Assembly (NCBI GenBank): GCA_048571215.1
Contig: CP182352.1
Span: 3,360,001 to 3,424,000 of the forward strand
Length of the DNA: 64,000 nt
Reading direction: 5' to 3'
Origin: Halarcobacter sp.
Lineage (GTDB): Bacteria > Campylobacterota > Campylobacteria > Campylobacterales > Arcobacteraceae
The notes beneath the pieces were generated by a model, which saw nothing but the letters and a program-made list of their open reading frames with translations, was not told the origin of the DNA and ran no database searches. The position numbers and the translations under genes are program-made. Positions 28,457-59,532 of the stretch are shown piece after piece. How positions within the stretch are numbered: the first letter of the stretch is position 1; every line of letters begins with the position of its first letter.

Positions 28457-28637
28457 GGAAAATGGGTAAATAGAAGTTCTGGAGATACTTGATAAGTGAA
28501 AACTTCACTTTTTGTCATGTTTTTTACTACGACATCATAGTGACTATTCCCAAACTTATCTTCATCGAGTATTAGTTTTAAAGGAAATAAAAATTTAAAA
28601 GTATCATCTGGATTATCTGACATAAAATCTGGAATGA
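28455..28637 (-). pseudogene. Internal fragment of element C tnsE-like gene (5' end stranded at 59425-59448)
   Basis: Translates IPDFMSDNPDDTFKFLFPLKLILDEDKFGNSHYDVVVKNM...SPELLFTHFP, homologous to 57643..59340. Confidence 0.9.
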
Positions 28638-28675
28638 TGTGAGAATCAATAAAAAATGATAATAGCTTTTCCTTT

Positions 28676-30005
28676 GAGACCGTTCAAAAATCTGTGTCAA
28701 GTCACCTAAAGTAACAAATCCATACTTGTTACAACTCTAAATAATTATCCAATCTCCCTTCGAAAAATATAGCAAGTTGGGAGATTGTTAAACTCCAATT
28801 ATGCACTGGCTGAGTCCATTTTACTTTTGCATTTAATATTCCCATATACAACAATTTTAAAAGTGAATTCTCATTAGGGAAAGCTCCTTTTGTTTTGGTT
28901 AATTTTCTAAATTGCCTATGTACAGATTCAATAATATTTGTAGTGTACATAATCTTTCTTATCTCTTTTGGATATTTAAAATAATAAGATAAATTCTCCC
29001 ATTTATTTTGCCAAGATTGAAGTACTATGGGATATCTTTTCCCCCATTTTTCATCTAGTTTTAAAAGCTCATCTTCTGCAAGTTCTTTTGTTGTTGCTTG
29101 ATAAACAAGTTTTAAATCTCTCATAAACTCTTTTTGGTCTTTAGAAGCTACATACTTCAATGAATTACGAATTTGATGTACAACACAAAGTTGTACTTCG
29201 GTATTTGGATATATTGTTTTAATAGCTTCAGGAAAGCCTTTAAGACCATCTACTGATGCAATTAGTATATCTTCTAATCCTCTATTATTTAAATCAGTAA
29301 GAACACTAAGCCAGAAGTTTGCTCCTTCACTTTGGGATAAATATAATCCTAATATATCTTTTTTACCATCAATTCCCATCCCTAAAACTGTGTAAACTGC
29401 TTTACTCACATACTTCCCACCATCTTTTATTTTATAATGTATCGCATCAAGCCATACAAATGGATAAATAGCTTCTAAAGGTCTACTTTGCCAAGCTTTT
29501 ACCTTATCTATAATTTTATCTGTAATAGTGCTTATTGTTGCACTTGATAATTGTATTTGATATATCTCTTCAATATGTTTTATAATATCTCTATAGCTTA
29601 ATCCTAAGCCATACATAGATAATATCTTTTCTTCTATTTCATTAGACATTGTTGTTTGGTTTTTCTTTACAAGTTGTGGTTCAAAAGAACCTGTTCTATC
29701 TCTTGGAGTATTCAATTCAAAGGAACCACTTGTTGATTTTATTGTTTTAGAGCTTTTACCATTCTTTCTATTTTTATTTCCTGCAAATACATCTTGAGTT
29801 ATATGAGAATCTAATTCTGCTTCTAAAGCAGCTTCAACTAATTGTTTTACTAATGGAGCAAGTACTCCATCTTTACCATTGATATTTTTACCTGCAAGTA
29901 AATCTTGTACAGCTTCATTAAAATCAAATTGTTTTTTCTTTTCCATCTATATCAATCCTTATAATATTTATTATATCAGACTGACACAGATTTTCTAACA
30001 CTCCC
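28676..30005 (-). mobile_element. IS256-family element with 8-bp TSD TTTCCTTT
   Basis: IRs GAGACCGTTCAAAAATCTGTGTCA / GGGAGTGTTAGAAAATCTGTGTCA; TSD at 28668-28675 and 30006-30013. Confidence 0.95.
28729..29946 (-). CDS. IS256-family (Mutator-type) transposase
   Basis: PRDRTGSFEP, WLDAIH, VDGLKGF, QLCVVHQIRN, YTTNIIES. Confidence 0.95.
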   Translation of the reverse strand: MEKKKQFDFNEAVQDLLAGKNINGKDGVLAPLVKQLVEAALEAELDSHITQDVFAGNKNRKNGKSSKTIKSTSGSFELNTPRDRTGSFEPQLVKKNQTTMSNEIEEKILSMYGLGLSYRDIIKHIEEIYQIQLSSATISTITDKIIDKVKAWQSRPLEAIYPFVWLDAIHYKIKDGGKYVSKAVYTVLGMGIDGKKDILGLYLSQSEGANFWLSVLTDLNNRGLEDILIASVDGLKGFPEAIKTIYPNTEVQLCVVHQIRNSLKYVASKDQKEFMRDLKLVYQATTKELAEDELLKLDEKWGKRYPIVLQSWQNKWENLSYYFKYPKEIRKIMYTTNIIESVHRQFRKLTKTKGAFPNENSLLKLLYMGILNAKVKWTQPVHNWSLTISQLAIFFEGRLDNYLEL

Positions 30006-30108
30006 TTTCCTTTAATAAATATCATTTATTAGGAAGAACAATGATTTTACTATCTTCGTTTGATTATCAATGCATAAAATAAATATTGATAATAAAAACA
30101 ATCTTAAT

Positions 30109-32264
30109 TTAAATTTTCAACCTATAAACTTTTGCAATAGGAGTCATAATAACTGGTTCAAAAAGTTTTTTATCGTAGTTCTCTAATACAAAGTGTTGAA
30201 TTAACATAGAATTATAGACTTTTTCTTCTACCACTAAATACTTTCTATAACTAGACATATAAATAACTGAATATTTTCCGGTAGGGTATATATTAGAAAT
30301 ATGTTTTTTAAACTCTTTTTCTTTTGTGTATGCTGTTGTGATAAATCTTTTTATAGGGAAAGTATATTTCCCTACTTGAAGTAAGGCTTTATTTTTTATA
30401 ATTTTTACATTATTTCCTAAATCTATAGATATATTGTTTTCTGCAAAATCTACTGATTCAAAGAAGAAACTAGATTTTCTTTTTTCTCCAGTCATCAAAT
30501 CTAAATTTGAAAATAACTCTATAGTTGAATATAAACTTAACATTTTATAAGGATAGTAAAAATAAATTTCTCTTGTCTTTTTTGGTAAGTTTATTTTTGA
30601 ATTAAGTGAATCTAAAAAATCATTTGTATTTTTAAACTTATAGTCTTTTGTCATCATGGCTATATTAGGTATAACACCTTCTCTATCCTCTCTAAAGTTT
30701 GTAACATCTATAGGCATTGTTCTAAAAGCTTTTTCTGTATATTCTACATCTAGTCTTGCAAGTTTCGAAGATATATTTTGCTTATTCATAAGCATAAAAC
30801 TTACTGGAAAGCTAACACTGCCTCCATGTTTACCATGATCTGTTAATACTTTTGTATCACTATAATATCTAATAGGACAACCAAAATCCCACCAAGAAAC
30901 TACATAATCTTCTCTTGAAGCAATATTTTTTAGTTTATCTAAAACCTCTGCTTCACTATTACTAACTTCACTAGGTACTTTATATTTAACTATATGATTT
31001 AGATTGGGATATAAAGATAAAGATGTAAAGATAATTAACATTGAATAAAAAAATATTTTAGAGTCTTTTTTTATCCTCACTGTGATAAATTTAGAGAATT
31101 CATAAATAAAATATCCTAAACCCAAAGCAAAAATAGGTACAGCATATATGGAAAACCTTAATCCTCCTGATGGTATCAAATATGGGATACCATAAGCTAA
31201 CATACCTAATCCCATCAAAGGAAGAATTAAAAACATTATTCTATATCTATATATTAAAAATATCAAACCTAAAGTGGCAAATAAAAAGGAGATAAAATGC
31301 CCACTTACTCTTCTTGTAAACTCTAAAAAGCCAATATGACTTGTCTCTTTTATAGTTTGCATAGTAGTATAAAAATGAAGTTTTAACTCTTTTCCTAATT
31401 CTAAAATATGTTTTTGAAAAAGATAGTTTTCTAGTTTTTCCCAGATTGGAGTAATCCCTCCAGTAAAAACAAAGATTATACAAACTATAAAGAAAATATA
31501 AAATAGATAGTTTTTAAATATCTGTTTTTTTAGACTCAAATATAATCCTAATAAAACAATTACTTTTAATAAGGCATTTGCATATATCATAGAAAAAAGC
31601 ATTATGATAATAAGTTTTAACTCATATTTATAGTTTTGTTTTTTTACAAACAAATAAATTGTGTAACAAAATATTAAAAGAAAAAAAGCAAACTCTAGGG
31701 CATAACTTTGTGGATACCACCAACGATATGCAATAATCTCAAGACCAGTAAATAGTAGATATTTATCTTCTTTTGTTTTAAAGCTAAAACTAAAGACCAC
31801 AAAAGAAAAGTGGGAAAAACAATATTTAACATATCCGTATCATAGTATCCCACCATAGTACGATTGTAATAGCTCCATGATATAGAAGCTAATAAGGCAG
31901 ATATAAATCCAAACTCTATTTTATTAAAATTTTTTGCTAATAAAATCAAAGGGATAACTATAAGTGATGAGAAAAATATAGGCATATAAAAAATAATTGA
32001 TTCAAATGAAAAAGGTAAAATTTGAACTAAAAAAGCAGTTATTTTTGAAAGAGCGCTATATACAGGAGACAAATCATACTCTTGATGAAAACCATTTAAT
32101 ATATCTCTGGCTCCTTCTGCATAAAAGAATCCATCATTTGAGTTTATTATAAACTCATTGTTGAATTTAAAGTTTTCATTTGATGAAAACTCATATACCC
32201 AAAAAAGTCTAGTAATAACAGAGAATAAAAATGCAATTGTAATCAATAATAAAGTTTTTTTCAT
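30109..32264 (-). pseudogene. pglB: STT3/PglB oligosaccharyltransferase split by one frameshift near 31776-31780
   Basis: NDGFFYAEGARD and RTMVGYYDTDML in ORF 31695..32264; WWYPQSY, WWDFG, DHGKH in ORF 30109..31800. Confidence 0.85.
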
Positions 32265-32266
32265 AG

Positions 32267-33529
32267 TTAATCTTTTATAAATAAAAATAGAGCTTTTGAT
32301 TTGATGATAAACATCTTTTTAGTATCTTTTAAAAATAAATCAAATAAGTAATATACAAAAATATATGTTATCAAACTAGCATATGCAGCACCTGATATTC
32401 CAAATTTTTTTATAAATATAAAATTTAATCCTATGTTTATAATAACACCTATTAGATTTCTATAAAGCTCAAGATTTGTTTTATTTTCTATTACTAACCA
32501 TTTACTACTAACTAGTCCCATATATACAAAAACTGTTGAAAATATATGTATAACTAAAATTTGTGAAGAGGATAAAAAATTTTCACCATAAAGAGATACT
32601 ATAATAAAATCAGACAAAAAATAAACACTTCCAATAAGTAAATATGCACAAAAAATCAAAAAAACTAAAAGCTGTTGTATCTTTTTATAATATAAAGATA
32701 TAGATTTATCTTTTGATTTTATAATCAAAGGGAAAAAAGAGGAGCAAACCAAACCTCCTATTATAAACCAAATCTCACTTAATCTAACAGCAGCAGAGTA
32801 ATAACCACTTTGAGCAACATCTAAAATCTCTTTTATCATAACTTGATCAATTTTTGCATATATAGTTGTAAGAACTCCTGCAAAAATCAGAGGATAGGAG
32901 TGTTTTAGTAAACTCTTTATTAAAGAATTATCAACTTTCCAAGAAAAAACACTAAACTTATTTTGAAAATAAAAAAACAATAATCCTAAAGCTACGATAA
33001 CACTTTCTATTAGTATTACCCAAGCAAAATAGATTAGAGGATAACTATAAACTATCAGATAAATTTTAAGTGATGAAGAAACAAGAAGAGCAATAAGTTT
33101 TGAAAAAACTACATATTTACTTAAAACTTTACTTTGAAAATAAAAATCTATTACATTGAAACTATGAAAAATAAAAGAGAATGAGATAACTATAAGAAGT
33201 AAATTTATAGGATATTCATTATCAATTAGATTAATATATATAAAAATAAAAAATATAACAACTATAGAGCTTAGAAATTTCAATACAAAAGCAGTACCCA
33301 AAAGTTCATTGACTCTTTTTTGATTTTTTACTAGTTCTTTTATAACAATAGAATCAAGTCCTAATGTTGTAAAAACAACTACTATAGAGATAATACTTTC
33401 TACAAAACTAAACTTTCCAAAATCATTTGGACCTAAATATCTTGCCATCCAAGAAAAAACAAAAACCCATAAAATCATTCGAACTATTTTTTCAAAAACA
33501 AGATAAGTGGTATTTTTAATATATTCCAA
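32267..33529 (-). CDS. Wzx-type flippase
   Basis: ARYLGPNDFG, KIDQVMI, GYYSAAVRLSE, multi-TM. Confidence 0.85.
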   Translation of the reverse strand: MEYIKNTTYLVFEKIVRMILWVFVFSWMARYLGPNDFGKFSFVESIISIVVVFTTLGLDSIVIKELVKNQKRVNELLGTAFVLKFLSSIVVIFFIFIYINLIDNEYPINLLLIVISFSFIFHSFNVIDFYFQSKVLSKYVVFSKLIALLVSSSLKIYLIVYSYPLIYFAWVILIESVIVALGLLFFYFQNKFSVFSWKVDNSLIKSLLKHSYPLIFAGVLTTIYAKIDQVMIKEILDVAQSGYYSAAVRLSEIWFIIGGLVCSSFFPLIIKSKDKSISLYYKKIQQLLVFLIFCAYLLIGSVYFLSDFIIVSLYGENFLSSSQILVIHIFSTVFVYMGLVSSKWLVIENKTNLELYRNLIGVIINIGLNFIFIKKFGISGAAYASLITYIFVYYLFDLFLKDTKKMFIIKSKALFLFIKD

Positions 33530-33531
33530 AA

Positions 33532-35264: not shown

Positions 35265-35458
35265 AAACTTCCTATAGATATTATAAATAACATTATAATA
35301 TATCATATGTTGAGTAAAATTATGGTTTTAGTGTGTAGCTTAGTGTAATCTCTTTTCATAATTTAAGATTTTTTATTGAAATTTATTATGTTATGTTGTT
35401 AGTTAGAAATTTTAAAATTGAAAAGTTTTTTAAGATGGCACTGACCCCCTAAATTCAG

Positions 35459-35612
35459 TTCCAAAGCTAATAATAACAAACTATTGTTATTATTTTAACG
35501 CTTTTCACATAAATTATCTCTTTAATTATATTTTATCTAAGTTCTTCTCAAAAGTGGAGATTCATTCACTGGGTGTTACTGTATTAATTATGTAAACTGT
35601 CCCCGGAATTTT
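35459..35612. repeat. ~150 bp direct repeat, copy 1
   Basis: TTCCAAAGCTAATAATAACAAACTATTGTTATTAT...AAACTGTCCCCGGAATTTT also at 36656-36809. Confidence 0.9.
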
Positions 35613-36352: not shown

Positions 36353-36370
36353 AATCTTTTTCCTACAAAA

Positions 36371-36640: not shown

Positions 36641-36655
36641 GCACATCACTTTTAA

Positions 36656-36809
36656 TTCCAAAGCTAATAATAACAAACTATTGTTATTATCTTAACGCTT
36701 TTCACATAAATTATCTCTTTGATTATATTTTATTTAAAAAGTGGAGATTCATTCTCAGGGGTGTTATTGGTGTTACTGTATTAATTATGTAAACTGTCCC
36801 CGGAATTTT
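36656..36809. repeat. ~150 bp direct repeat, copy 2
   Basis: Matches 35459-35612 with small indels. Confidence 0.9.
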
Positions 36810-37201: not shown

Positions 37202-40200
37202 TTATATCCATCCCATATTTAAATTATTCAAATAAATATTTTCCCATTTACTTTTACCATTATTCCCTCCTGGTTTATTATCCCAATGCCCTTTAGGATG
37301 ATATTTATCAGGTAAATGTGGTCTCCATTCTCCATTAGTATCATCATAGAGACTTTTTTCTCCTCTATTTTTAGGTTTGTTTTTTGAAGGATTACCTTCT
37401 TTACATTCACCATTAACTGGTGGCTTTGGCCAAGTAGAAGTGTCTGATAAATCAATACCTTCTCCTGACTCTATATCGCCAATTTGTATTATAGGATTAA
37501 TTGGCATTTTAGGAATAGTTATAGGTCTAGGTATAATCATTGGCCTAGTAATAACAAATGCATTTAACCCTTCAGGATCAATCCCATTAATAGGATCACC
37601 CAACACATACCCATAAAGATTAGTATCCCCACCACTAAAATCAATAGGATCCTTAGCAGTCCATTTCCCTGTGTAACTATCATAATCCCTATACCCAAAT
37701 CTAGTTAAACCAGTATCTGAATCATAAAGCCCACCTGCAAACCCAAATGGTACTTTAAAATCTGGATTTGAATCTTCTAGTATATTACCAAAGCTATCAT
37801 AAATTATCTCTTTGATTATATCATGATTAGAGTCAGATACTGCCCTTAAGCTTCCAACTTGGTCATAGTGTAAATAATATTTATTTGAACCTTGTGTCAT
37901 AGATATAGGCATTCTACTATTTGCGTATTCAAATCTTTGGACTAAATTATCATTTCCATCATATATAGCTAAAAGAGTTGTTAAATCAGCCCATAGGTAT
38001 TTTTCTACAACAACTCCATTTACAAGTTTTGCAACTCTTTGATTATTAGCATTATGTTTATAAGTAATAGTTTTAGAAGGTGTTTTTACCTCTTTTAACT
38101 CTCCCAAAGTAGAATAACTATAAGTAGTAGTTCCATTTGGCGTTACCTTTGAAGATAAATATCCATCTTCATCATAGGTATAAGTGTTATCTCCATATAC
38201 TTCTACTTGGTCATCTAAGGTATAGTATCCTGATGTTGTAACACCATTTACAGTTGCAGAGGTTCTATTTTCATTGTTATCATATGAATAAGTTTCTACT
38301 ATATTTCCATCTTTTTTTACTTCTATTAATCTTGCATTATCATCATAGGTATAGTCATATGTTTTTGTAGTATTGTTTACAGTTTCTTGTTTTTGTAAGA
38401 TTAAAGCTGAATTATCTTTTGAAATAATTTCATAACTAAAGCTATTATCTGCTACTTTTGTTAACTCTCCATAGTTATCATAACTTAGATTTTGAACAAA
38501 ATTTCCATCTGTAATTTTTGTAACATAGGCATTTTCTGCATCTCTTGTAAGAGTATAATCACCACTTGTTAAAACTAAACCATCATTATCATATGTATAG
38601 TTTTCAGTAATACCTGCATAAGTAAACGATATTGGTAAGAAATCATCATTATAGGTATAACTTAATCCTTCATTTAATACCCCATTATATGTTAATAAGC
38701 TTAATAAGTTTCCATCATAACCATATTCGATTTTTTCACTTCCTTTTGTAATAGTTCCTATTTGATTATTAAAAATATACTCATAGTTTATTGTAGCCTC
38801 AGGAGTTGTTGTAGAATCTAATCTATCATTTACATAGTTATTTACTATTGTTTTTCCACTTGGTCTTGTTATTTGGGTTAGTTTTCTATTTCCATTATAT
38901 TCATATAAAGTTTGTTTATTAAGCGCAGATTTCATAGAGGTTCTTTGACCTATATTATCATATGTAAAGTCGTGATTCGTAGAAATAGGAGTTATTAATC
39001 TAGTCATATTACCACTCACATCATAACTATATTCTTCTATTGCACCATTTGGATGAGTAACCCTTGTAACTCTATCTAATATGTCATATTGATATGAAGT
39101 TGTTTTTCCCCTTTCATCAGTGATAGTATCAATATTACCTCTACTATTATAAGTAAAACTTGTGGTTCTGGTACCAGTTGTTTGAGATATAACTCTTCCT
39201 TTATTATCATATGTATAAGTTGTAGGAGTTAAAGTACCTGAGGTTGAGCTTGTTGTAAGTCTTGTATTTATATCATACTCTTCCTTTGCAATTCTTCCTT
39301 CAGGAGTTGTAATAGTATTTATACCATTTTCATAATCATTTTTTATAGTAGTTGCTTTACCATTTGTTGTGATTGTTTGGGTTTTTGATGTTGTTAATCC
39401 ATTTTCATTAGTTTCATAAACTGCGCTATTACTTGTTACTTTACTTAAACTACTTGGAAGTATAGTTGTTACTGAATCAAGTACTCTTTTTTTTGTTTCT
39501 GGATCAGTTTTGTACTTACTTTGAATATTTATATTGTTCTTGATAGCATTTACTAATCTATTATCAGAAGATACTGTAATAGAATTACTATCTCCATTAG
39601 GGAAAACTGTTTCTTGTTTTAAAGAATCATTTTCTAATTTAATTTCTCTATAAAATTTAATATCTCCCTCAGGTTTACCTAAAGCATATTCAATAAATGC
39701 ATCACTTATATTCTTTTGTAAAAACCACTCTTCATTATTTACATCAATTTCCTTAATTATACGACCATTATCATCATATAAATTAAAAGAACTTGCTCCT
39801 GATGGCTCTGTATGTTTTGTAAGTAAAGAGTCATTATTATATTCAAATTGATGACTTGTATTATCTTCATATGTAACAGATAATAAATTTCCATTTGAAT
39901 CTACATTCAAATATGTTTTTTGACCATTTGGTGCAGTTATAATAGTTGGAATACCATTTTCATTTCTTCCTATTAAAATTTCATTATCAAACTGATTCTT
40001 AACACTAATCAACCTTTTATTTTCATCATGGGTAAAGCTTTTTAGAACCTTTTTTGAAAATAAGTCTATAGTTTCGATATGGTTTCCAGCTAAATTAAAC
40101 AACTCTGCTGTATTATTTGAGTTTATATTAATTATTCCATCTTCTATTTCATTATCTGTGAAGAAATTAGAGGTATAAATCCTATATAATTTATCATTTG

Positions 40201-43200
40201 ATGAAACTATTAAATCTTCATTATAATCTAATACAAGATTATTAGGATAACCAATTGAAGTATCAAGTGCATAACTATTATTTACTATAGAACCTGTAAT
40301 AGCATTTCCAGCATATGTTTCTATGTAACCATTTTCATTAACTTTTCTTATTACTTTATTTCCATAATCTAGTATAAATATATTACCTTTAGAATCAATA
40401 TCAATGTTTGAAGGACCATTTAATTTTGCATTAACTGCTAACCCTCCATCTCCTGAATAACCTGATTCTCCCGTACCAATAACAGTTGAAATAGTATTTA
40501 AAGTATCTACTTTTCTTATAACATTATTTATAGCATCAACTAAATATAAATTACCTTCACTATCAAGTTTTATGTCTCTTATAAAACCTATTTTAGCCTC
40601 TGTTGCTGAACCTCCATCCCCTGAATAACCTGATTCTCCTGTACCTACAATTGTTGAAATTATACCATCAGAATCTACTTTTCTAATAACATAATTATTT
40701 GAATCAATAAAATACAAACTGCCATCATTATCAATTTCAACTACACTGGGATGACTAATTTCTGCATTAATTGCTAGACCATTATCACCGGAATACCCAT
40801 ATGTACCAGTTCCTACAATTGTTCTTACTATACCATTCTCATCTATTTTTTTTATCTTATTAGCATACCTATCGACAATAAAAATTTCACCTTTTTCATT
40901 TACCTTTATATCCGAAATATCACTAAATGATGCATTTAATGCCAATCCCCCATCACCACTATCTTGACTTATACCATTTCCTGCAATATGACTAATCTCT
41001 CCTAAAGGATCAATCTTCAATATTTTACTATTATTATAATCTTGAGAAGCAACATAAGTATTTCCTCCAGATAAACTCACCAATGATGATTTCCAACTTC
41101 TATTATAACCAGAAACATTATTACTAAAAGCTTCAAAGTCGTATTCTATTTCCTCAATTTTTTGATTAAAAATTAAACTTTTATTATTTTCAGTTCCATC
41201 TCCTTTTTGAAGAGAGAAATGAAATATTTTATCATAATTTGATAATGTCCATCCATTTGAAATTGCATTTTCTTTATTAGCTTTATATTGACTATCTATT
41301 ATAAAAAACTTAAATGACTTTAGAATAAATTCTTTTCTTGAGAGAATCCCTGTTACCTCATTTCCAAACTTTGCCCATGCATTAATTGTCCCTTGTCTAC
41401 TAAGTCCTTTTTGATAAACTGCTTTATATAAATACTTTACTATTAACTTAGCTTTAACTTTTCCCGGAACATAATTACCTAGTTTATCTTTTCCATCCCA
41501 TGTAAATGTTGCATTTGTAGAAAACTCATCTAAAGTAAAACTTTTTTCCTGTCTTTTTCCAAATATGTCTAATATTAATATAATCTTTTTTACACTACTT
41601 GGAGGTTGAAGTTGATCTTTTAAATCAATAATATACTTATAACCTTTAGTTCTTTTTGAAGAATAATGTAAAGTCAGGTTTGTACCTGAAATTGGGATAT
41701 CATCATGAAAAGCTCCCGTTGTGGTTTCAACAAAAGAACTTATGTTAACACTTGCACAAGTTTCACTACATTTACCAAAAGTTTTTTTACAGTTTTCATT
41801 AAGTTTATTTTTATCTTTATCTGTAGTTATATCGTTAATTTTAGGTCTTTCAACATTTTTATCAGGTACCCAAGGATAATTAGGATCCCAAGGAGTAAAG
41901 TGATTGATTTCCATTCTAGAATATGTTTTACCTACTTGGTAAACTATATTATCTTCTAATCCAATAACTTCACTTGTAAAAGTTCCATCATTATCTAAAT
42001 CATTTGGTTGTCCATCACCTGTTGAGTCTAAAGCATCTACAGTTCCATCATTATTTGTATCAAGTAGTTGTACAACAACACCATTTTTTGAACCTTTCCA
42101 TACACTTTCATTTCTATCATAATATCCTACAGGAACTACTACTCCAACATCAAACCCTAAAAAATTATCTACATACATGATAACAGGAGAGTTAAACTCA
42201 ACTGTTTCATCATCACTTACTCCATCTACTGTAAGATCAGAGCAATATGTATATGCTGATTCTTTTGGTAAATTTGCAGGCATTGACTCTGGCGTTTTAA
42301 ACTCTGTTGCTCTTACATCTATAGTGTCTAAAATTCTTGTTGAACCATCAGGAGATTTAACTGTTGCACTTGAAACTCCGTTAAATACTAAAGTAGTTGA
42401 CCTTGAACCTCTATCGTCACTAATAATTGATGAAGTGTGAACTTGCGGAGTTGAATCATTTAAATCTATTGTTGTAACTTTATCATCTATTCTTAACATT
42501 GTTACATCATCAACAATGTTCCAATTTGAAGCCTCTGCAAAAAGCTTTCTATCTATTGTGGTATATCCATTTTTTGTATATCTTACAATAATTGTTTTAT
42601 TTCCTTCTACTGGTAATACATAACTTCCATTTAGGTCTGTTTGAACAGTTCCAAGCTCTTCATTATAAACAATACTAATGGTTACATTAGATAAAGGATT
42701 TCCACTTTCATCATAAATATTTCCAGTAATCATAGAAAAAAGATTTTCACTATAAAATTCTTTTGTTGCATTAACTGGAATTTGATCTATATACTTTGTA
42801 CCAAAATGTGTAAAATTAAAATTTGTTGTTGCAGGTTTATCCACTACTTTTACTGGGATTAAAGCTGAAGTTATATCTCCTGATATTATCTTTAAAGTTG
42901 TTTCTCCTATTTGTAAACCAGTAAAAGTATCTACACCATCAAAAGAAACAATACTAGTATCTGCTATTTCATAAGTAAAATTTCCATTAATAGGTTTTAT
43001 AGAACCATCACTATATATTCCTTGTATGGATATTTGCTTATCATTATTTACTCTTAAAGTTATTGGATTTGGAGTTATTTTTATTGAATCTAAAACTAAA
43101 GGTTTTTTAACTTTTATAGTTACATCATTTGATTGAATTGTATCAATAGTTGCTTTTAAAGTTGTAATTCCTTCTTTTAATGATGTAATTGTTCCTGCAT

Positions 43201-44239
43201 TATCAACTGAAGCTATGGTATTATCTGCAATAGTCCAAGTAACATTTGAAGATAAATCTAATGAAGTCTCGTCACTGTAATATCCAGTAGCAACTATATT
43301 TTCTGTTTCTCCGATAGTTAAGCTTAGTTCATTTGGAGTTAGTTCTATGGAGTTTAATACAGCTTGAACTGTTATTGAAACCTCTTTTGTACTTGTTTGT
43401 CCATCATTGTCTGTTACAGTTAATGTAATAGTATATTCCCCTTGGGTATTAAATACATATGAGAATGTTTTTTCAGATGCTAATATATTAGAATTTTGAT
43501 CAGTCCAAAGATAGCTTACTATCTCCCCATCTTCATCCCTTGATAAGCTTGCATCAAAGCTAATTGATTCTCCAATTAAAATAGTAGTTGCACTTACTTG
43601 AAAATCTGCAATAGGTTTTATATAATCTATAACTTCAATATCAACAGTTGAAGATGAACTTAATCCATCATCATCTGTTACAGTTAATGTAATAGTATGT
43701 ATTCCAATACTTGTAAAAGTATAATCAAATATTTGATTACTGCTTAATATATCTCCATTATTATCTGTCCAACTATATGAGACAATATTACCATCACTAT
43801 CTGACGATGAAGAAGCATCAAAGGTTATTGAATCATTTATTTTTATCTTTGTATTATTTGTTTGTATTATTGCTTGAGGTGGTGTGTCGTTTGAAGTTTG
43901 GGGTTTTACTAAAATTTCAATTGTATCACTAGATTTTAAAGGAGAAATATAACCTCCTTTTTCTGTAGTTGTTAATTCAAAAATAAGTTTGGTGTCTTTT
44001 TTCACTACAGGAGCTATAAAACTTGCATTTATTGTGTTTTTATTTAAAAGTTTTACTTTTTTACCAAAAACTTGTTTCCATTTATATTTTTCTATTTTCC
44101 CACCAACTTCAGTGGTACTCAAACTTCCATTTAACACTACAGGTGAAGAAGATTCAACCACTTTATCTTTACCTGCATCTGCACATCCTGTAAAAAGTAT
44201 TGCAAATAAAAGCATCAAACTAAAATACAAAGATTTCAT
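37202..44239 (-). CDS. Teneurin-like RHS/YD-repeat lipoprotein toxin (PKD, Ig-like, NHL, YD shell, C-terminal toxin)
   Basis: Lipobox LFTGC; PKD DASxSxDxDGxIVSY repeats; GYSGDGG NHL repeats; YD repeats; PFGFAGGLYD...PINGIDPEGL; His-rich tip GEWRPHLPDKYHPKGHWD. Confidence 0.9.
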   Translation of the reverse strand: MKSLYFSLMLLFAILFTGCADAGKDKVVESSSPVVLNGSLSTTEVGGKIEKYKWKQVFGKKVKLLNKNTINASFIAPVVKKDTKLIFELTTTEKGGYISPLKSSDTIEILVKPQTSNDTPPQAIIQTNNTKIKINDSITFDASSSSDSDGNIVSYSWTDNNGDILSSNQIFDYTFTSIGIHTITLTVTDDDGLSSSSTVDIEVIDYIKPIADFQVSATTILIGESISFDASLSRDEDGEIVSYLWTDQNSNILASEKTFSYVFNTQGEYTITLTVTDNDGQTSTKEVSITVQAVLNSIELTPNELSLTIGETENIVATGYYSDETSLDLSSNVTWTIADNTIASVDNAGTITSLKEGITTLKATIDTIQSNDVTIKVKKPLVLDSIKITPNPITLRVNNDKQISIQGIYSDGSIKPINGNFTYEIADTSIVSFDGVDTFTGLQIGETTLKIISGDITSALIPVKVVDKPATTNFNFTHFGTKYIDQIPVNATKEFYSENLFSMITGNIYDESGNPLSNVTISIVYNEELGTVQTDLNGSYVLPVEGNKTIIVRYTKNGYTTIDRKLFAEASNWNIVDDVTMLRIDDKVTTIDLNDSTPQVHTSSIISDDRGSRSTTLVFNGVSSATVKSPDGSTRILDTIDVRATEFKTPESMPANLPKESAYTYCSDLTVDGVSDDETVEFNSPVIMYVDNFLGFDVGVVVPVGYYDRNESVWKGSKNGVVVQLLDTNNDGTVDALDSTGDGQPNDLDNDGTFTSEVIGLEDNIVYQVGKTYSRMEINHFTPWDPNYPWVPDKNVERPKINDITTDKDKNKLNENCKKTFGKCSETCASVNISSFVETTTGAFHDDIPISGTNLTLHYSSKRTKGYKYIIDLKDQLQPPSSVKKIILILDIFGKRQEKSFTLDEFSTNATFTWDGKDKLGNYVPGKVKAKLIVKYLYKAVYQKGLSRQGTINAWAKFGNEVTGILSRKEFILKSFKFFIIDSQYKANKENAISNGWTLSNYDKIFHFSLQKGDGTENNKSLIFNQKIEEIEYDFEAFSNNVSGYNRSWKSSLVSLSGGNTYVASQDYNNSKILKIDPLGEISHIAGNGISQDSGDGGLALNASFSDISDIKVNEKGEIFIVDRYANKIKKIDENGIVRTIVGTGTYGYSGDNGLAINAEISHPSVVEIDNDGSLYFIDSNNYVIRKVDSDGIISTIVGTGESGYSGDGGSATEAKIGFIRDIKLDSEGNLYLVDAINNVIRKVDTLNTISTVIGTGESGYSGDGGLAVNAKLNGPSNIDIDSKGNIFILDYGNKVIRKVNENGYIETYAGNAITGSIVNNSYALDTSIGYPNNLVLDYNEDLIVSSNDKLYRIYTSNFFTDNEIEDGIININSNNTAELFNLAGNHIETIDLFSKKVLKSFTHDENKRLISVKNQFDNEILIGRNENGIPTIITAPNGQKTYLNVDSNGNLLSVTYEDNTSHQFEYNNDSLLTKHTEPSGASSFNLYDDNGRIIKEIDVNNEEWFLQKNISDAFIEYALGKPEGDIKFYREIKLENDSLKQETVFPNGDSNSITVSSDNRLVNAIKNNINIQSKYKTDPETKKRVLDSVTTILPSSLSKVTSNSAVYETNENGLTTSKTQTITTNGKATTIKNDYENGINTITTPEGRIAKEEYDINTRLTTSSTSGTLTPTTYTYDNKGRVISQTTGTRTTSFTYNSRGNIDTITDERGKTTSYQYDILDRVTRVTHPNGAIEEYSYDVSGNMTRLITPISTNHDFTYDNIGQRTSMKSALNKQTLYEYNGNRKLTQITRPSGKTIVNNYVNDRLDSTTTPEATINYEYIFNNQIGTITKGSEKIEYGYDGNLLSLLTYNGVLNEGLSYTYNDDFLPISFTYAGITENYTYDNDGLVLTSGDYTLTRDAENAYVTKITDGNFVQNLSYDNYGELTKVADNSFSYEIISKDNSALILQKQETVNNTTKTYDYTYDDNARLIEVKKDGNIVETYSYDNNENRTSATVNGVTTSGYYTLDDQVEVYGDNTYTYDEDGYLSSKVTPNGTTTYSYSTLGELKEVKTPSKTITYKHNANNQRVAKLVNGVVVEKYLWADLTTLLAIYDGNDNLVQRFEYANSRMPISMTQGSNKYYLHYDQVGSLRAVSDSNHDIIKEIIYDSFGNILEDSNPDFKVPFGFAGGLYDSDTGLTRFGYRDYDSYTGKWTAKDPIDFSGGDTNLYGYVLGDPINGIDPEGLNAFVITRPMIIPRPITIPKMPINPIIQIGDIESGEGIDLSDTSTWPKPPVNGECKEGNPSKNKPKNRGEKSLYDDTNGEWRPHLPDKYHPKGHWDNKPGGNNGKSKWENIYLNNLNMGWI

Positions 44240-53043: not shown

Positions 53044-53712
53044 ATGCTAGAAGATTATATTAAATTTCCACAACGCAAAATAAAAAAGAGCTATCGTTCT
53101 GTCATTGGGCATTTCCCTAGTATAAAAAATGGTAAATCAATAATCTATGAGTCACTATTGGAAAGAGCCTTATATCTATCTTTGGAATTTGATGATAGTG
53201 TTTTTGCATATTATGAACAGCCTCAAATTGAAATTGATTTTAAAAATAGACATTCAACATATAGCTTAGATTGCTATATCCGAAGAGTAAAAGAATCAGG
53301 GGTTAAAGATACGATTATTGAAGTAAAATATTCAAATGAACTTGAAAAAAATAAAGAATACTTTGAAGAAAAATTTGAAGATACGAAAGTGTTTGCGAAA
53401 GAACATGATTTAGAATTTGATGTATTTACTGAACTTTCATATAGCAAAGAATATATAGAAAATTTAGACTTTTTATATAGGTATAAAGAAAATCCAATAG
53501 AACATAAATATGAAAAAGAGATATTGGATGTTCTTAAAGACACTACAAAATTAGCTGCATTTGATTTAGTGCAAAAACTTACATCTAATCCAAAAGAATA
53601 TGCAATAGTTTCTAATAACATTTGGTCATTAGTTTCAACTGGTAAATTAAAGACAGATTTATTTGCTAATGAGTTTACTATGAATTCTTTAGTGGAGTTA
53701 AACAATGGCTAA
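53044..53712 (+). CDS. tnsA: TnsA endonuclease
   Basis: YESLLER...LEFD...EQP...D...IEVK PD-(D/E)xK pattern; overlaps the tnsB start. Confidence 0.85.
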   Translation: MLEDYIKFPQRKIKKSYRSVIGHFPSIKNGKSIIYESLLERALYLSLEFDDSVFAYYEQPQIEIDFKNRHSTYSLDCYIRRVKESGVKDTIIEVKYSNELEKNKEYFEEKFEDTKVFAKEHDLEFDVFTELSYSKEYIENLDFLYRYKENPIEHKYEKEILDVLKDTTKLAAFDLVQKLTSNPKEYAIVSNNIWSLVSTGKLKTDLFANEFTMNSLVELNNG

Positions 53713-55591
53713 TGTAATTTCCTTTGATATTGATAGTAAAATTTTTTACCAAGATGTAGAATATATTATAAAAGGATATCCCTCTTTAGAGGAAGTACTC
53801 CTCAAAAAATTAAATAAACCATATAATGAAAAAATTGTAAAAGTCAATGATTTAATTAGTGACCCTAAAAATATAAAAAAGAGAACAAAAGAATTAGTTG
53901 ATACTGAACAAAAAGAATTAGATAAAGCAACTGAACGATTTAAGATTATTGAACCTTTATTAGACATTGAAAATAGAACAGCAAAAGATGTTCAAAAAGT
54001 TGCAAAGAAAAATAAAAAAGGTATTGCCACAATATATAGATGGCTTAATACTTATGAGCAATACAAAACTGTAAGTTCACTAGCTTCTAGAAGAGAATTT
54101 TGTGGAGGTAAAGGAAAAAGTAGATTAGACGAATCTGTTGATACAATAATCAATAGTGTAATAGAAGAGATGTATTTACATAAACAACAATATCCCCTGC
54201 AAGATATCTATGAAGAGATTGTTTATAAATGCCAGAATATAGAACTAAAAGCACCCACAAAAAATACGATAAGAAATAGAATAAATGCTTTACATCCAAA
54301 AATTATTGCAAAATATAGAAATGGAATAAGAGTAAATGAAACTAGAGGAATGCCAAATAAATTTCCAGATGTGAAAATGCCTTTAGACATTATTCAAATT
54401 GATCATACTAAAGTTGATGTTATTTTGGTTGATGAAGAAAATAGAGAACCAATTGGAAGACCTTTTATTACTGTTGCAATTGATGTATATAGTAGGATGA
54501 TGTATGGCTTCTATATCTCTTTAGAAGCCCCTAGTTATTTTAGTGTAGGGCAATGTTTATTAAATGCAATTTTACCAAAGGATGAATTATTAGCAAAATA
54601 TAAAGTTGAGGGAGAATACCCTGTTTATGGATTGCCTAGAAAGGTACATATGGACAACGGTAAGGACTTTACTTCAATTAGTTTACGTAATTTTTGTCAA
54701 GAATTTAGAATAGAAGATCGCTATCGTCCAGTTGCTAGACCTGAGTTTGGTGGTGCAGTAGAAAGAGTTTTAGGCACATATATGAAAAAGATGCATTCCT
54801 TGCCAGGTACAACTAGATCTAATATATTTAAAAGAGGAAGTTACGATTCTGAGATAGAAGCTGCTATGACTATTGATGAACTTGAAGAATGGTATTTGGA
54901 TTTTGTAATAAATGTTTATCATAAAACTGAACATAGCTCAATATTTATGACACCTGAAGAGAAATTTTATCAAGGTTTATATGGCGTCGGAAAAGAAAAG
55001 TCTATCCCGTTTTTGCCTACAGTTCCAACAAATACTTTAAAGCTTAGAATGGCATTACTTCCTCAAATAAAACGTAGTGTTCAAAAAAATGGTATCACTA
55101 TTGATTATATTACTTATTTTTCAGAATCTTTGAGAAAATGGATTATTCCATCTCAATATAAAAAATTAAAACCTAATTTAAAAAATGAAGTTATTTGTAG
55201 ACGTGACCCAAGGGATATTAGTAAAATATATGTATATGATGAAGATATTAAAGATTATATCACTGTTCCATATGCAGATATTAGAAAACCTAAAATGAAC
55301 TTATCTGAGCTTAGAGAGGCAATTTCGGAAGCAAAAAAGCAAATAACAGGAAGAGAACTTGAACCTCATGATATTTTTGAAGCAAAAGAGAGACTTCGAC
55401 AAAGGGTTGAATCTGCAAAAAGAGAAAAAAAATCTGTAAGACGTAAAAGAAGTTCTAAAAAGCATCAAGAAAAAATTTTAAATATGGAAAAAGAGAGAAT
55501 TGATTATAAAGAGACCAAACCTACACCTTTAAAAATATCCCAAGCACAGGATGAAGATGAGGAAGGTTATGATATATATCCTATAGGTTGA
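53705..55591 (+). CDS. tnsB: TnsB/TniA DDE transposase
   Basis: QIDHTKVD, AIDVYSR, MDNGKDF, GAVER, RDPRDIS. Confidence 0.92.
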   Translation: MANVISFDIDSKIFYQDVEYIIKGYPSLEEVLLKKLNKPYNEKIVKVNDLISDPKNIKKRTKELVDTEQKELDKATERFKIIEPLLDIENRTAKDVQKVAKKNKKGIATIYRWLNTYEQYKTVSSLASRREFCGGKGKSRLDESVDTIINSVIEEMYLHKQQYPLQDIYEEIVYKCQNIELKAPTKNTIRNRINALHPKIIAKYRNGIRVNETRGMPNKFPDVKMPLDIIQIDHTKVDVILVDEENREPIGRPFITVAIDVYSRMMYGFYISLEAPSYFSVGQCLLNAILPKDELLAKYKVEGEYPVYGLPRKVHMDNGKDFTSISLRNFCQEFRIEDRYRPVARPEFGGAVERVLGTYMKKMHSLPGTTRSNIFKRGSYDSEIEAAMTIDELEEWYLDFVINVYHKTEHSSIFMTPEEKFYQGLYGVGKEKSIPFLPTVPTNTLKLRMALLPQIKRSVQKNGITIDYITYFSESLRKWIIPSQYKKLKPNLKNEVICRRDPRDISKIYVYDEDIKDYITVPYADIRKPKMNLSELREAISEAKKQITGRELEPHDIFEAKERLRQRVESAKREKKSVRRKRSSKKHQEKILNMEKERIDYKETKPTPLKISQAQDEDEEGYDIYPIG

Positions 55592-55596
55592 AATAG

Positions 55597-56466
55597 ATGA
55601 ATGAAAGAAATTTGACAAAAGAAGCTTTAGCGTATTTAGAAAAAAGTGATGAAGAAAGAATTTTATATTGTAAAAAAGATCATTGGATAGGATATGGTGC
55701 AGCTGTAAAATTAATTGAGATTTTAGAAGATAAGTTCTTTGATCCTCCTCAAATGAGACATGAAGGCTTATTGATTTATGGCGACTCAAACAATGGTAAA
55801 ACTGCTATCTTAAGAAAAATGTATGATTTACATAAAGTCAAATTAGAGCCAATTGAAAAAGGCGATAACATAACTTATGATATTCCTATAATATATTTTC
55901 AAGCTCCCACAGTTCCCGATGAAAGTAGATTGTATAGTCTTATATTAGAAGAACTTTGTGCTCCTTGTAAGCCAACAGAGAAATTATCAATAAAAGTAAA
56001 ACTTGCAAAGCATTATTTAAATAAATTAGGAACAAAGATGATTTTAATAGATGAGATTCATAGTTCGTTAACTGGTAATCTAAATAAACAAAGAACTTTT
56101 ATAGATGATTTAAAGCAGCTAAGCAATAGTTTGTCATTAACCATAGTTTTAGCAGGGACAAGAGCTGCTCACTCTGCTTTATCAATTGGAGAAGAAACAG
56201 CAACAAGGTTTCCTTCTATTGAACTTCCTAGATGGAACAATGATAGAAAGTTTAGGTCTTTTATTGCTACCTATGAACGATGTTTACCTCTAAAAGAGGC
56301 TTCAAATATGGCAGATAATCCAGAGATAATAAATGCACTTTTTCATCAATCTGAAGGATTAATTGGAAAAACAGTGAATTTATTGAAAAAAGCAGCAGTA
56401 AAAGCAATCAAATCAAAAAGAGAGTATATTATAGTCTCTGATATAGAGTATTTACCAAAGTTGTAA
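55597..56466 (+). CDS. tnsC: TnsC/TniB AAA+ ATPase
   Basis: HWIGY, GDSNNGKT, LIDEIH, TRF. Confidence 0.9.
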   Translation: MNERNLTKEALAYLEKSDEERILYCKKDHWIGYGAAVKLIEILEDKFFDPPQMRHEGLLIYGDSNNGKTAILRKMYDLHKVKLEPIEKGDNITYDIPIIYFQAPTVPDESRLYSLILEELCAPCKPTEKLSIKVKLAKHYLNKLGTKMILIDEIHSSLTGNLNKQRTFIDDLKQLSNSLSLTIVLAGTRAAHSALSIGEETATRFPSIELPRWNNDRKFRSFIATYERCLPLKEASNMADNPEIINALFHQSEGLIGKTVNLLKKAAVKAIKSKREYIIVSDIEYLPKL

Positions 56467-56467
56467 T

Positions 56468-57640
56468 ATGAAAACTAAAAAAAGAAATAGAGATTGGGTT
56501 CAAGACTATTTCTTTTTGTTTATTTCCAAACCTTTAAAAGATGAACTTTTAAGTTCTTGGTTAACCAGAGTTGCTTTTGAGCATCAACGAGATCTTTCAA
56601 GTTTTATATCACTTTTCATAAGACATCAAGGAAGCACAATAGCAAGAGCTGATATTGATTTTTTATATGATGAAAAACTATTTAAACAATTAGCTAGAAA
56701 AAGCCATTTATCTGATAAAGAAATATATCAAATGTCTTTACGTAGTGAAGAAGGACATCTTTTTATTTGTTCTGAAAATGGGTTATATCCACCTTTTCAA
56801 ATTAGAAAATTAACTGACAAAAGAACTCATCATGCTTTAATGTATTGTCCAAAGTGTTTAGCTGAGGAAAAAATTCCATATTTTAGGAAAAAATGGAGAT
56901 ACAACTTTTATAATGCTTGTCCAAAACATAAGATATTTTTAACAGACAGATGTTGGCGATGTTATACAAAAATTGAATTTCCAAAAATAAAACATCTAAA
57001 AGAACTTTGTTTTTGCTATAACTGTGAAAAAGATTTAAGAGAAACTATTACGATATCTATTCAATCAAATCATAAATATGGATTAAAAGCTATTGAGTGG
57101 TTTGAAAAAGGATTAAATAAAGGATATTTTATAATAAATAAACAAAAAGTTAAATCAGTTTTTATATTTGAAAGTTTTACAAAATTGAGATTTTTATTAG
57201 GTAAAAAACAAAAATTAGATTTAGAAGCCTTTCCTTTGATAGAAGAGTATAAAGATATTTGTAAAAAGCTAGAAAAATATAATTCTAAAAAAGCTTTATC
57301 TATATATAAAGAGTTCGTATTAACCTCAATGGTTTATTATCTATTTCAGAATTATCCTAATAATTTAATTGATTTCTCAAAACAAAACCATTTTACTCAT
57401 AGGGATTTTGTTCATGGTTTTAAAGATATTCCATTTTGGTATAAAGAACTAATAGATGAGATTATCCCCATGCAAAATAAAATAGGTAGAGTAATTAGTG
57501 AAAGTGAAGTTTTAGGAGCTATTAAGTATTTAAAAAATCAAAAGAAAGTTGTAAATCAATTAAATGTGGCAGAAGTTGTAGGTTGCCATTTTACAATACA
57601 TAAGGGTTTTATAAAAATCTACAAAAGAATAATCAAATAA
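56468..57640 (+). CDS. tniQ: TniQ/TnsD-like target selector with C-terminal HTH
   Basis: PLKDELLSSWLTR, YCPKCL, CPKH, CWRC, CYNC zinc motifs. Confidence 0.9.
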   Translation: MKTKKRNRDWVQDYFFLFISKPLKDELLSSWLTRVAFEHQRDLSSFISLFIRHQGSTIARADIDFLYDEKLFKQLARKSHLSDKEIYQMSLRSEEGHLFICSENGLYPPFQIRKLTDKRTHHALMYCPKCLAEEKIPYFRKKWRYNFYNACPKHKIFLTDRCWRCYTKIEFPKIKHLKELCFCYNCEKDLRETITISIQSNHKYGLKAIEWFEKGLNKGYFIINKQKVKSVFIFESFTKLRFLLGKKQKLDLEAFPLIEEYKDICKKLEKYNSKKALSIYKEFVLTSMVYYLFQNYPNNLIDFSKQNHFTHRDFVHGFKDIPFWYKELIDEIIPMQNKIGRVISESEVLGAIKYLKNQKKVVNQLNVAEVVGCHFTIHKGFIKIYKRIIK

Positions 57641-57642
57641 TC

Positions 57643-59340
57643 TTAAATTTTTCCTAATAATCCACTATACCACTTAGCTAATTGCATATCATTCAAACTT
57701 TCATTTCTCTCATGATTCTTTTTAGCAAATTTAGGATTAGTTTTTTTATATTTTTTGGAAATGTCAGGAATAGAAATATCATCTTTACAATATAAATTGA
57801 TGAAAAGATTAAATATATCTTTTGTTATAAATGAATCAGAAATTATTACCCAACAAGATGCAGATGAAGATGTATAGTTTTCTAATTCTAATAATCCTAC
57901 ATGAGAATTTTTATATTTAAAAGTAGCAGTTAAATATTGTCTAGCTCTTTTTTTCATTTTGCATTTAGAGTTAATCTTTTTTTCACCATTTTTTTCAACT
58001 ATAAATTCAGGTAAATGAGTTACTTCATTTAAAACAAAATTTTCAATAGGTTTTTGTTTCTGTAAAAAATCCATGTATTGCTTAAATACTATAAAATTAT
58101 CTATTTCCTTTAGAGGAGTTTTTTCACCTTTTTCAAATTCACTAGAGATTATCACTCTTCTGGTTGTTTTATCTCCTTTTGATGAGGACTCTGTAAGACT
58201 TTGATCAACTTTATCTCCATTCTCTTGCTCTTGATATATTTTTAGTAAATCCTCAATAATATCTTTAGTCTTTGTTTCATGTTCTATTTCAATATTTTGT
58301 AAACTTCCACAACTTTTTTTTCTGTCTTTTTGATGTTGAGTTCTGGTGTGTTTTTTATTTGCATGTTTTACTTTTAATATTTCAGTAGTCTCTTCAGGAA
58401 TTTCTCTATCAACTTTAGAAAGATTTTCTAAATCATTTATAGTTGTAATAACTTTATTTTGCTCAATAATTTTTGTAAATTTGTCAAATCCTATATCTGA
58501 GTAATCATTTAAAATTTCATGAATATAATAGTATTGTTCGTTTGTATCTTTATTTGTCAATAGAGTTGCTTTTACATCTATTTTAAATTTTTCTTTCACA
58601 GGAAAATTTATTTTTAGATGAATATCTCCAGGTTCTTTATCTATATCCTCTTGTCTCATATATGCAAGATAGTTGTGTATATACTTGCCTATATTATCAA
58701 ATTCATTATGAGCAGTTTCTTGACAAGCAAATCTATGTATAAAAGCAGCATCTTCATCTGTACGTGGAGTTGGTAATACAATTTTTGCATCTGCTCTATT
58801 ATCATCACACATAATATATAAACTTTCAACATTACACTCTAAAGAGGCTTCTCTCATTTCTGAAAATCTAAAGTAATAATATATACCTATCGCATAATGG
58901 GGGATTATAATTTTGATACCAGATTGCTCTATTAAATAACAGTTAATATATTTTGCAGTATTTAAAAATGTATAATTCCAACCAAGTAAAGTACCAATAG
59001 TCTTATAATCAAGTATTTCATGTAGTTTCTTTGATGAAGAGTTGTCTATTAAAGAGGTATCAATGAAAAAACTTTCTTCAAAATTTTCTTTATCTGGATA
59101 ATTTTCTGTTTTATCACTATTTTTAAAAGATTTACAAAGAGGAAAATGTGTAAATAAAAGTTCAGGAGAGATAAGTTTTGAAAACACATTACCAGTAGAC
59201 ATATTTTTAATTACGACTTCATAATGACTATTCCCAAACTTATCTTCATCAAGGATTAATTTTAAAGGAAATAAGAGTTTAAAAGTATCATTTGGATTAT
59301 CAGACATAAAATCAGGAATAATACTTTTACCCTTTGACAT
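57643..59340 (-). CDS. TnsE-like protein (tentative)
   Basis: 565 aa, conserved next to the element end in both C and D; IIIPHYAIGIYYYF and RQYLTATF...VGLLELE...SASCWVI recall TnsE N- and C-terminal patterns. Confidence 0.55.
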   Translation of the reverse strand: MSKGKSIIPDFMSDNPNDTFKLLFPLKLILDEDKFGNSHYEVVIKNMSTGNVFSKLISPELLFTHFPLCKSFKNSDKTENYPDKENFEESFFIDTSLIDNSSSKKLHEILDYKTIGTLLGWNYTFLNTAKYINCYLIEQSGIKIIIPHYAIGIYYYFRFSEMREASLECNVESLYIMCDDNRADAKIVLPTPRTDEDAAFIHRFACQETAHNEFDNIGKYIHNYLAYMRQEDIDKEPGDIHLKINFPVKEKFKIDVKATLLTNKDTNEQYYYIHEILNDYSDIGFDKFTKIIEQNKVITTINDLENLSKVDREIPEETTEILKVKHANKKHTRTQHQKDRKKSCGSLQNIEIEHETKTKDIIEDLLKIYQEQENGDKVDQSLTESSSKGDKTTRRVIISSEFEKGEKTPLKEIDNFIVFKQYMDFLQKQKPIENFVLNEVTHLPEFIVEKNGEKKINSKCKMKKRARQYLTATFKYKNSHVGLLELENYTSSSASCWVIISDSFITKDIFNLFINLYCKDDISIPDISKKYKKTNPKFAKKNHERNESLNDMQLAKWYSGLLGKI

Positions 59341-59532
59341 GTTAGTTTAAACTCCCATTATCAAATTTTATTTGACATATTATCACTTTTTATTTCCTAT
59401 TATCATTTTTTTTTGCTTTTGACAAATGATACTTTTACCTTTAGACATATTAAATTAAACTTCCATTATCAAAGTTTATTTTACATATTATCACTTTTTA
59501 TTTCCTATTATCATTTTTTATTTTTTCTGACA
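59321..59532. repeat. Two tandem ~108-bp-offset transposon ends, each with three ATTATCA TnsB-site cores
   Basis: 59321-59424 and 59429-59532 are homologous; each ends in GACA. Confidence 0.9.

Follow-up and report, generated by a model that had tools for sequence, protein, structure and literature searches.

We analyzed a 64,000-nucleotide stretch of the Halarcobacter sp. genome (CP182352.1, positions 3360001-3424000; hereafter the window), which belongs to a single 3.61 Mb contig with 27% G+C. The window carries an array of Tn7-like transposons at the 3' end of mnmG (gidA; 59518-61389, minus strand; Pfam GIDA, E = 5.5e-164), the gene that forms the attachment (att) site, and all of the DNA at 11345-59532 is transposon-derived. 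The element adjoining mnmG, designated C, now supplies the final codons of the gene from its right end (…MRCQKK and a stop), and the native mnmG ending, MRCKTN and a stop, is found at the far side of the array (minus strand, 11323-11344). At the standard att insertion point the duplicated target is CCTCA, whose right copy was read from the sequence at 59533-59537, with further copies at 16864-16868 and 11340-11344, each of which is directly followed by TGTCAT. On the left, 175 bp at 11188-11362 are 93.7% identical to the left end and adjoining chromosome of the related genome G001, which carries a single element at this site. Within the right end of element C lies a second Tn7-like transposon of 30,787 bp, element D (28638-59424, minus strand), and the position of this nested insertion relative to the att site is the subject of this analysis.

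Element D is bounded by termini of the TGT/ACA type, reading TGTGAG... from the left end at 28638 and ...TTGACA to the right end at 59424. The initial annotation had noted a perfect AATGA duplication around the element, and this 5-bp target-site duplication (TSD) was read directly at both termini (left copy, 28633-28637; right copy, 59425-59429); by our own arithmetic, the probability of two 5-mers matching by chance at 27% G+C is ~0.0025. By manual count, 24 of the 29 outermost nt are the same in the two ends, and both ends carry the TnsB-type repeat AAAAATGATAATAG at bp 15-29. The right end contains three TnsB-type repeats, at bp 15, 35, and 57, and the left end one, at bp 15; a motif scan allowing up to 3 mismatches found no further left-end repeat, and looser look-alikes were noted by eye. 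The asymmetric repeat number, the TGT...ACA termini, and the 5-bp TSD are those of a Tn7-like element.

In silico excision of element D together with one AATGA copy joined MSKGKSII to PDFMSDNPDDTFK... and restored MSKGKSIIPDFMSDNPDDTFK…, as in the rejoining proposed earlier. Of the 300 nt around the rejoined site, 298 nt aligned without gaps to the uninterrupted element of G001 at 94.6% identity, and TCATT is present once at the corresponding place in G001. The right end of element C stops at 59532 and that of element D at 59424, which confirms from the end coordinates a distance of 108 bp between the insertion points. The elements share the same orientation, and the three-repeat right ends of both point towards mnmG. 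Based on these results, we concluded that element D is inserted in the right end of element C.

The C and D right-end copies form a 108-nt direct repeat with 88% identity, in which repeats 1 and 2 (bp 15-49) are identical. Such a repeat could mislead assemblers, and the arrangement might in principle reflect misassembly, or two similar right ends that recombined or were duplicated in tandem, with no insertion at all. We regard this explanation as highly improbable, given the perfect TSD at independently defined termini, the gap-free restoration of the resident sequence, the single-contig assembly, and the different lineages of the two right-end copies (the C part is 95% identical to G001, and D is 81% identical to C). 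In addition, Logan contigs from runs X1 and X3 bridged the right junction: they showed zero differences over the right-junction pieces (compared region 58700-60200), a 131-nt contig piece covering 59382-59512 spans the D end, AATGA, and the C stub in both runs, and the shared 37-mer had approximately twice the depth of its neighbours (107.9 versus 49-53 in X1). This comparison covers the right junction, and X1 and X3 are possibly the source of the assembly itself and thus do not count as independent support.

The resident element C is itself a remnant. In its right-end stub of 103 bp (59430-59532, minus strand), the terminal TGT is followed by two TnsB-type repeats (bp 15-29 and bp 35-49) and, at ~bp 57-71, by a third that matches less closely; codons 1-8 of its tnsE-like gene also lie in the stub. 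The remainder of that gene, on the other side of element D (28452-28637, minus strand; 95% identical to G001 and 81% to D), brings the remnant to ~67 codons followed by a stop, and it is fused directly to a tnsA remnant (28024-28456, plus strand) at the junction …GTTAAACA to GGAAAATG…. The ~5.4 kb deleted from element C held tnsB, tnsC, tniQ, and most of tnsE, and element C is not autonomous. The initial annotation described element D as splitting a tnsE-like gene; the insertion does lie inside that gene, but the gene is not intact otherwise, the C copy being cut by the ~5.4 kb deletion, which may have come before or after the insertion of D.

The rest of element C extends over 16869-28023, with a left end that begins TGTCAT at 16869 and a degenerate left terminal repeat, and its cargo consists of a GmrSD-like nuclease, QatABCD, SIR2-HerA, and unknown open reading frames (ORFs). 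The tnsA and cargo segment (28405-25288) is 90.8% identical to locus L008, an element with all core genes in a Poseidonibacter metagenome-assembled genome (MAG). The right end and 5' part of tnsE, by comparison, are 95.2% identical to G001 versus 73.8% to L008, and element C may have formed by a deletion that fused two successive (tandem) occupants of the site. To the left of element C, a 163-bp fragment of an insertion sequence (IS) of the IS256 family (16701-16863; 99% identical to 28676-28838) ends exactly at CCTCA, and beyond it lies a 5.5 kb left-end remnant of an older element (11345-16700) to which no right end belongs. The deletion endpoint of this older element is within 1 bp of where its missing right-end tip should be, and the region 16701-16868 thus hints at a transposase-made break.

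Two further observations concern the flank of the array. A 56-nt direct repeat (89% identity; 9120-9175 and 11217-11272), located just outside the native flank, brackets a Na+/H+ exchanger gene (9271-10989). A copy of the 3' end of tniQ with 74% identity is present at 1071-1283, ~10 kb outside the array, and may have been left behind by an even older element; downstream of it are genes for a type I restriction-modification methylase and specificity subunit and for AAA proteins (1723-8943).

Four core transposition genes of element D are arranged on the plus strand. The 222-aa product of tnsA (53044-53712) matched Pfam Tn7_TnsA-like_N (5.2e-11) and, weakly and below the cut-off, an NCBIfam TnsA-like model. 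The tnsB gene (53705-55591) encodes a DDE transposase of 628 aa with Pfam rve and Mu-transpos_C domains, which is 94% identical to TnsB of G001 and has PseCAST and Tn6677 TnsB as its nearest solved chains (E = 1e-45). The tnsC product (55597-56466) is a short TniB-type AAA+ protein of 289 aa (Pfam TniB, 1.6e-50), for which VchTnsC of Tn6677 is the nearest solved chain (E = 1.7e-10). The 390-aa product of tniQ (56468-57640; Pfam TniQ, 2.7e-22) has the TniQ of type I-F3 CRISPR-associated transposons as its nearest relative among solved homologues (E = 2e-6). With TnsA, a DDE TnsB, TnsC/TniB, and TniQ all encoded, element D, present in a single copy, is a complete Tn7-like cut-and-paste transposon, and its tnsB is the sole tnsB in the genome.

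The fifth gene, encoding a 565-aa TnsE-like protein (57643-59340, minus strand), begins 84 bp from the tip of the right end and converges on tniQ; the two ORFs end at 57643 and 57640, respectively, and no gene lies in between. The protein itself gave zero Pfam or NCBIfam matches even at E <= 10, and an ESM Atlas look-up returned no usable match. A profile built from four orthologues retrieved 155 cluster representatives at E <= 0.001, mostly of 540-600 aa. Among 30 full-length distant homologues hand-picked from the 150 listed, 6 matched Pfam TnsE_C (E <= 0.01), one of them exceeding the curated cut-off. When a 59-sequence family profile was compared with PDB, the top three matches were the TnsE entries 5d17, 9d5l, and 5d16 (E = 0.0077, 0.025, and 0.027), followed by a ribosomal protein (E = 0.16). 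The AlphaFold model of the 565-aa protein (predicted local distance difference test, pLDDT, 91.5; predicted template modeling score, pTM, 0.74) had TnsE C-terminal domains in its top 7 Foldseek rows (probability 0.98-1.00, TMt 0.54-0.64, E = 0.014-0.09), with no row reaching E <= 0.001. Profile, Pfam, and fold evidence thus support the protein as a remote TnsE homologue and bear out the label that the gene had received from the sequence alone. In locus L010, a Sulfurimonas MAG, a 38%-identical tnsE-like gene likewise starts directly after a right end, whose repeat is a different one (AGTTTGAGAAT), and it is followed by a two-component system and two-partner secretion cargo rather than by tniQ. 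Since this layout is shared with L010, the placement of tnsE at the right end predates the Arcobacteraceae family.

By Pfam and ORF reading, the cargo of element D occupies 30015-52900 and includes a split pglB/STT3, glycosylation genes, a 2345-aa RHS/teneurin-like protein, radical SAM and TauD proteins, a TIR/SEFIR-NACHT protein, a GHKL ATPase, and a C5 DNA methylase. The pglB/STT3 oligosaccharyltransferase (30109-32264) is read as two overlapping ORFs, an N-terminal one of 189 aa and one of 563 aa with the core and C-terminal part; this split is a frameshift or a sequencing error. A ~160-nt block is repeated 1197 nt apart (35454-35612 and 36651-36809; 87 nt at 94% and 41 nt at 100% identity), adjoining small ORFs and a HEAT-repeat protein downstream of the RHS/teneurin-like gene (37202-44239). 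No Cas Pfam domains were found in D ORFs of at least 100 aa, and no array-like family was seen among 20 of the 45 direct-repeat families found at the thresholds used, no dedicated CRISPR search having been made; the combination of cas effector genes and an array inside the element, by which CRISPR-associated transposons are defined, was not found in element D. The left end of the element is interrupted, 38 bp from its tip, by an IS256-family insertion sequence of 1331 bp (28676-30006, minus strand; Pfam Transposase_mut, 5.6e-104) that is flanked by the 8-bp duplication TTTCCTTT (28668-28675 and 30007-30014). This IS is present in the genome in 15 full-length copies at 100% identity, the one in element D included.

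We further compared the position of element D with the insertion points of related elements, measured as the offset between a conserved mnmG motif (CATATGTA or variants) and the terminal TGT. The 18 right ends considered come from the window, 10 family genomes, one genome-contig locus, and 5 metagenome loci; L023 (a 2-mismatch motif match that is not an end) and L012 and L021 (the window itself) were excluded, and the set retains some duplicates or near-duplicates (L008 is the same as L020, L018 is close to L029, and L022 is close to L032 and L033). An offset of 12-13 nt was observed for 13 of them (element C, G001, G004, G022, G154, the G160-type contigs, G173/L008, and L030), representing approximately nine independent junctions. 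Single right ends have offsets of 17 nt (G149, L016), 33 nt (L031), and 60 nt (G010, L014, downstream of an intact native mnmG stop and terminator hairpin), element D has an offset of 121 nt, and one right end (G163, L019) is not next to mnmG. In 17 of the 18 cases the right end faces the mnmG 3' end, as expected of orientation-specific insertion at an att site. The sites in G010, L031, and G149 carry no resident stub, and their offsets of 60, 33, and 17 nt therefore indicate that spacing varies between subfamilies. The TniQ of element D is 73-78% identical to those of G001, G004, G154, and G010, namely 78% to G001 and G004 (offset 13) and 73% to G010 (offset 60). We also considered offsets quantised in multiples of a 12-bp TnsC turn (48 and 108), an idea that was dropped on account of the offsets of 17 and 33 nt.

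The position used by D-type elements at an unoccupied site was revealed by X5 and X7, which come from another study and are soil metagenomes by record. Each yielded one contig with a D-type right end, differing from the 5' part of D tnsE and the D right end at 8 of 726 nt (~99% identity), followed by 12 other letters and then by an mnmG with 104 differences in 651 positions (84% identical). The D-type terminus lies there at offset 14 from the mnmG motif, with no C stub. Since X5 and X7 end at offset 14, D-type elements use the normal site when it is empty, and the 108-bp shift is not the normal offset of element D. The initial annotation had named as a competing possibility that D-type elements always insert about 108 bp downstream, even at empty sites, and this is contradicted by the two contigs. 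Moreover, the ~99% identical transposon DNA beside an 84%-identical mnmG points to recent host-to-host transfer of the D-type element.

This mobility bears on a further explanation, namely that the C::D composite was formed elsewhere, on a plasmid or in another strain, and arrived as a unit, either by the action of D proteins on the outer ends of C or by homologous recombination; no occupied chromosomal att site would then have been involved. Consistent with such an origin, D-type elements do move between hosts, element C has no transposase of its own in a genome with one tnsB, its right end is nearly identical to ends served by a 94%-identical TnsB, and the outer CCTCA duplication is intact. 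However, element D would still have entered an element with cognate sites at 108 bp from its tip, which leaves the breach of immunity and the odd position unexplained; the left terminal repeat of C is degenerate, and no C::D composite was found elsewhere in the genus and family genomes or metagenome loci scanned. We consider arrival as a unit unlikely.

A second nested case was found neither in 25 genus genomes and 184 family genomes (10 of them with the right-end motif) nor in 3 genome-contig loci and 5 metagenome loci, in scans that need near-exact repeats and miss diverged ends. The right end in G163 (L019; G163:C21, ~78.7 kb) that lies away from mnmG is decayed, has a broken tnsE start, and is located, by our own translation, at the 3' end of a putative IS3-type transposase gene. 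Its flank, TCATT, equals that of element D; the flank was read as the end of the IS3-type gene, and the match was treated as a coincidence.

As the G163 right end suggests that non-att insertions seem to occur, element D could instead have entered element C by a route not directed by the att site, either through its TnsE-like pathway or by untargeted TnsABC transposition, and have survived in the neutral interior of a dead element. TnsE proteins characteristically steer transposition to replicating or conjugal DNA. Element D does encode an intact TnsE homologue, and TnsE-dependent transposition has been demonstrated for Tn6022 (PMC11014353). Against this route, a landing 108 bp from the att point in the att-specific orientation is very unlikely for undirected insertion into a 3.6 Mb genome, ~48 kb of transposon array would have been equally neutral, and element D is present in a single copy. 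We therefore judge non-att entry unlikely.

The att orientation, the nearness to the att site, and the normal D-type offset at an empty site together favor an att-directed, displaced event. We propose, with a probability of roughly 55%, that TniQ homing brought element D to mnmG past a leaky target immunity and that the resident right end displaced the insertion. According to this scenario, recognition of the mnmG 3' end by TniQ would still have directed the insertion, which would explain both the orientation and the landing within ~100 bp of the att site in 3.6 Mb. Target immunity would be leaky in the branch of element D, the array of three TnsB sites in C would have kept the target complex off the standard position, and strand transfer would have taken place ~35 bp beyond the last TnsB site, where the DNA first becomes free of such sites. 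The later entry of the IS256-family element into the left end probably impaired further movement of D. Cross-recognition of the resident end is expected, because the D TnsB is 94% identical to that of G001 and C has the same repeats 1 and 2 as D; with these shared repeats and a 94%-identical TnsB that serves the 95%-identical G001 end, classical target immunity, by which cognate TnsB sites in a resident end inhibit insertion close by, should have applied. We also tried a pseudo-att, in which the right end of C would mimic the mnmG recognition region. It was rejected, as 155 of 2000 shuffles scored at least as high as the 38 of 100 anchored matches and none of the other registers was clearly better.

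Several points weigh against displacement by the resident end. Only one such event is at hand, and the 18 right ends include no other nested case. The three CCTCA copies imply that earlier occupants re-used the standard position, and occupancy is thus not always displacing; the older right end that would show whether the site was truly occupied is itself missing, the IS fragment (16701-16863) having taken its place. The spacing is not rigid, given the offsets of 17, 33, and 60 nt at apparently empty sites in other subfamilies. The X5/X7 element was seen as the 5' part of tnsE and the right end, without its tniQ, and either TniQ or the TnsE-like protein may have acted as selector. Finally, contig support from reads covers the right junction only.

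The insertion point ~35 bp past the third repeat of C fits a local block, and displaced homing can tentatively be extended to a general, though doubtful, proposal. Among these non-CRISPR Tn7-like elements, a branch near the I-F3 type, the right end of a resident would act as a local block only, and a TniQ complex on mnmG would be shifted to the first stretch without TnsB sites, ~35 bp beyond the third one, so that newcomers would nest and decapitate the tnsE of their predecessor instead of stacking in tandem. If true, a newcomer would have a built-in way to disarm the plasmid-targeting pathway of the resident while sharing its safe harbour.

Tn7-like elements are prized for precise, immunity-controlled integration and are the basis of CRISPR-guided integrases. 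The behaviour of a newcomer at an occupied att site also bears on the growth of defence and cargo islands. Prototypic Tn7 inserts at attTn7 downstream of glmS, uses TnsD and TnsE pathways, and exhibits target immunity. Element D shares with it the TGT/ACA ends, the 5-bp TSD, close-packed TnsB sites on a right end facing the target gene, both sequence-specific and TnsE-type selectors, and a conserved gene whose 3' end is the insertion site. In contrast to Tn7, in which tnsE is the last gene of the tnsABCDE operon, the tnsE-like gene of D is inverted and beside the right end, TnsC is short (289 aa, TniB-type), and a TniQ of 390 aa takes the place of the long TnsD. In addition, insertions of the mnmG-targeting family fall inside the last mnmG codons, with the element supplying a new stop, unlike those of Tn7. 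In Tn7, immunity prevents a second insertion at an occupied site (summarized in PMC11014353).

The nearest solved homologues of the D TnsB, TnsC, and TniQ belong to type I-F3 CRISPR-associated transposons (Tn6677 and PseCAST), but these carry Cas proteins, whereas the D ORFs of at least 100 aa show no Cas domain and targeting would be protein-directed to mnmG. Target immunity is reported to be conserved among such transposons (PMC9798831), and it was found to be leaky for the I-F3 element of V. cholerae, with a relative efficiency of ~20% at 5 kb (bioRxiv 10.1101/2020.07.17.209452).

The closest parallel to the nested arrangement is provided by Tn6022 and the AbaR-type islands in comM of A. 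baumannii, which likewise combine TnsA, TnsB, TnsC, and TniQ with a remote TnsE on the opposite strand (Faure et al., PMC10293859), and in which second elements with their own 5-bp TSD likewise lie in or beside a resident at an occupied att site (PMC11014353). Strong immunity was measured for Tn6022 in E. coli despite these natural nested elements (PMC11014353). Element D differs from the Tn6022 family in its att gene (mnmG instead of comM) and in lacking any gene between tniQ and tnsE, whereas Tn6022 requires TnsF with TniQ; it therefore falls outside that family. The tnsE of Tn6022 is near the left end and far from the core genes according to Faure et al., whereas that of D abuts both the right end and tniQ, and the internal insertions of Tn6022 have been linked to a TnsC'-'TnsF fusion, whereas the D tnsC is a plain 289-aa ORF. 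We found no literature linking Tn7-like elements with mnmG, gidA, or Arcobacter, and no description of a family that targets mnmG and has its tnsE inverted and adjacent to the right end, although the supplementary tables of large surveys may list it. Nested or tandem Tn7-like elements at occupied att sites are thus already in print for Tn6022, and the D/C pair is a new instance. It offers a clean natural case, in which a D-type element uses the standard offset at an empty site (X5 and X7) and inserts 108 bp further in beside a cognate right end, and it frames the question of whether immunity in the branch of element D is long-range, as against merely local.

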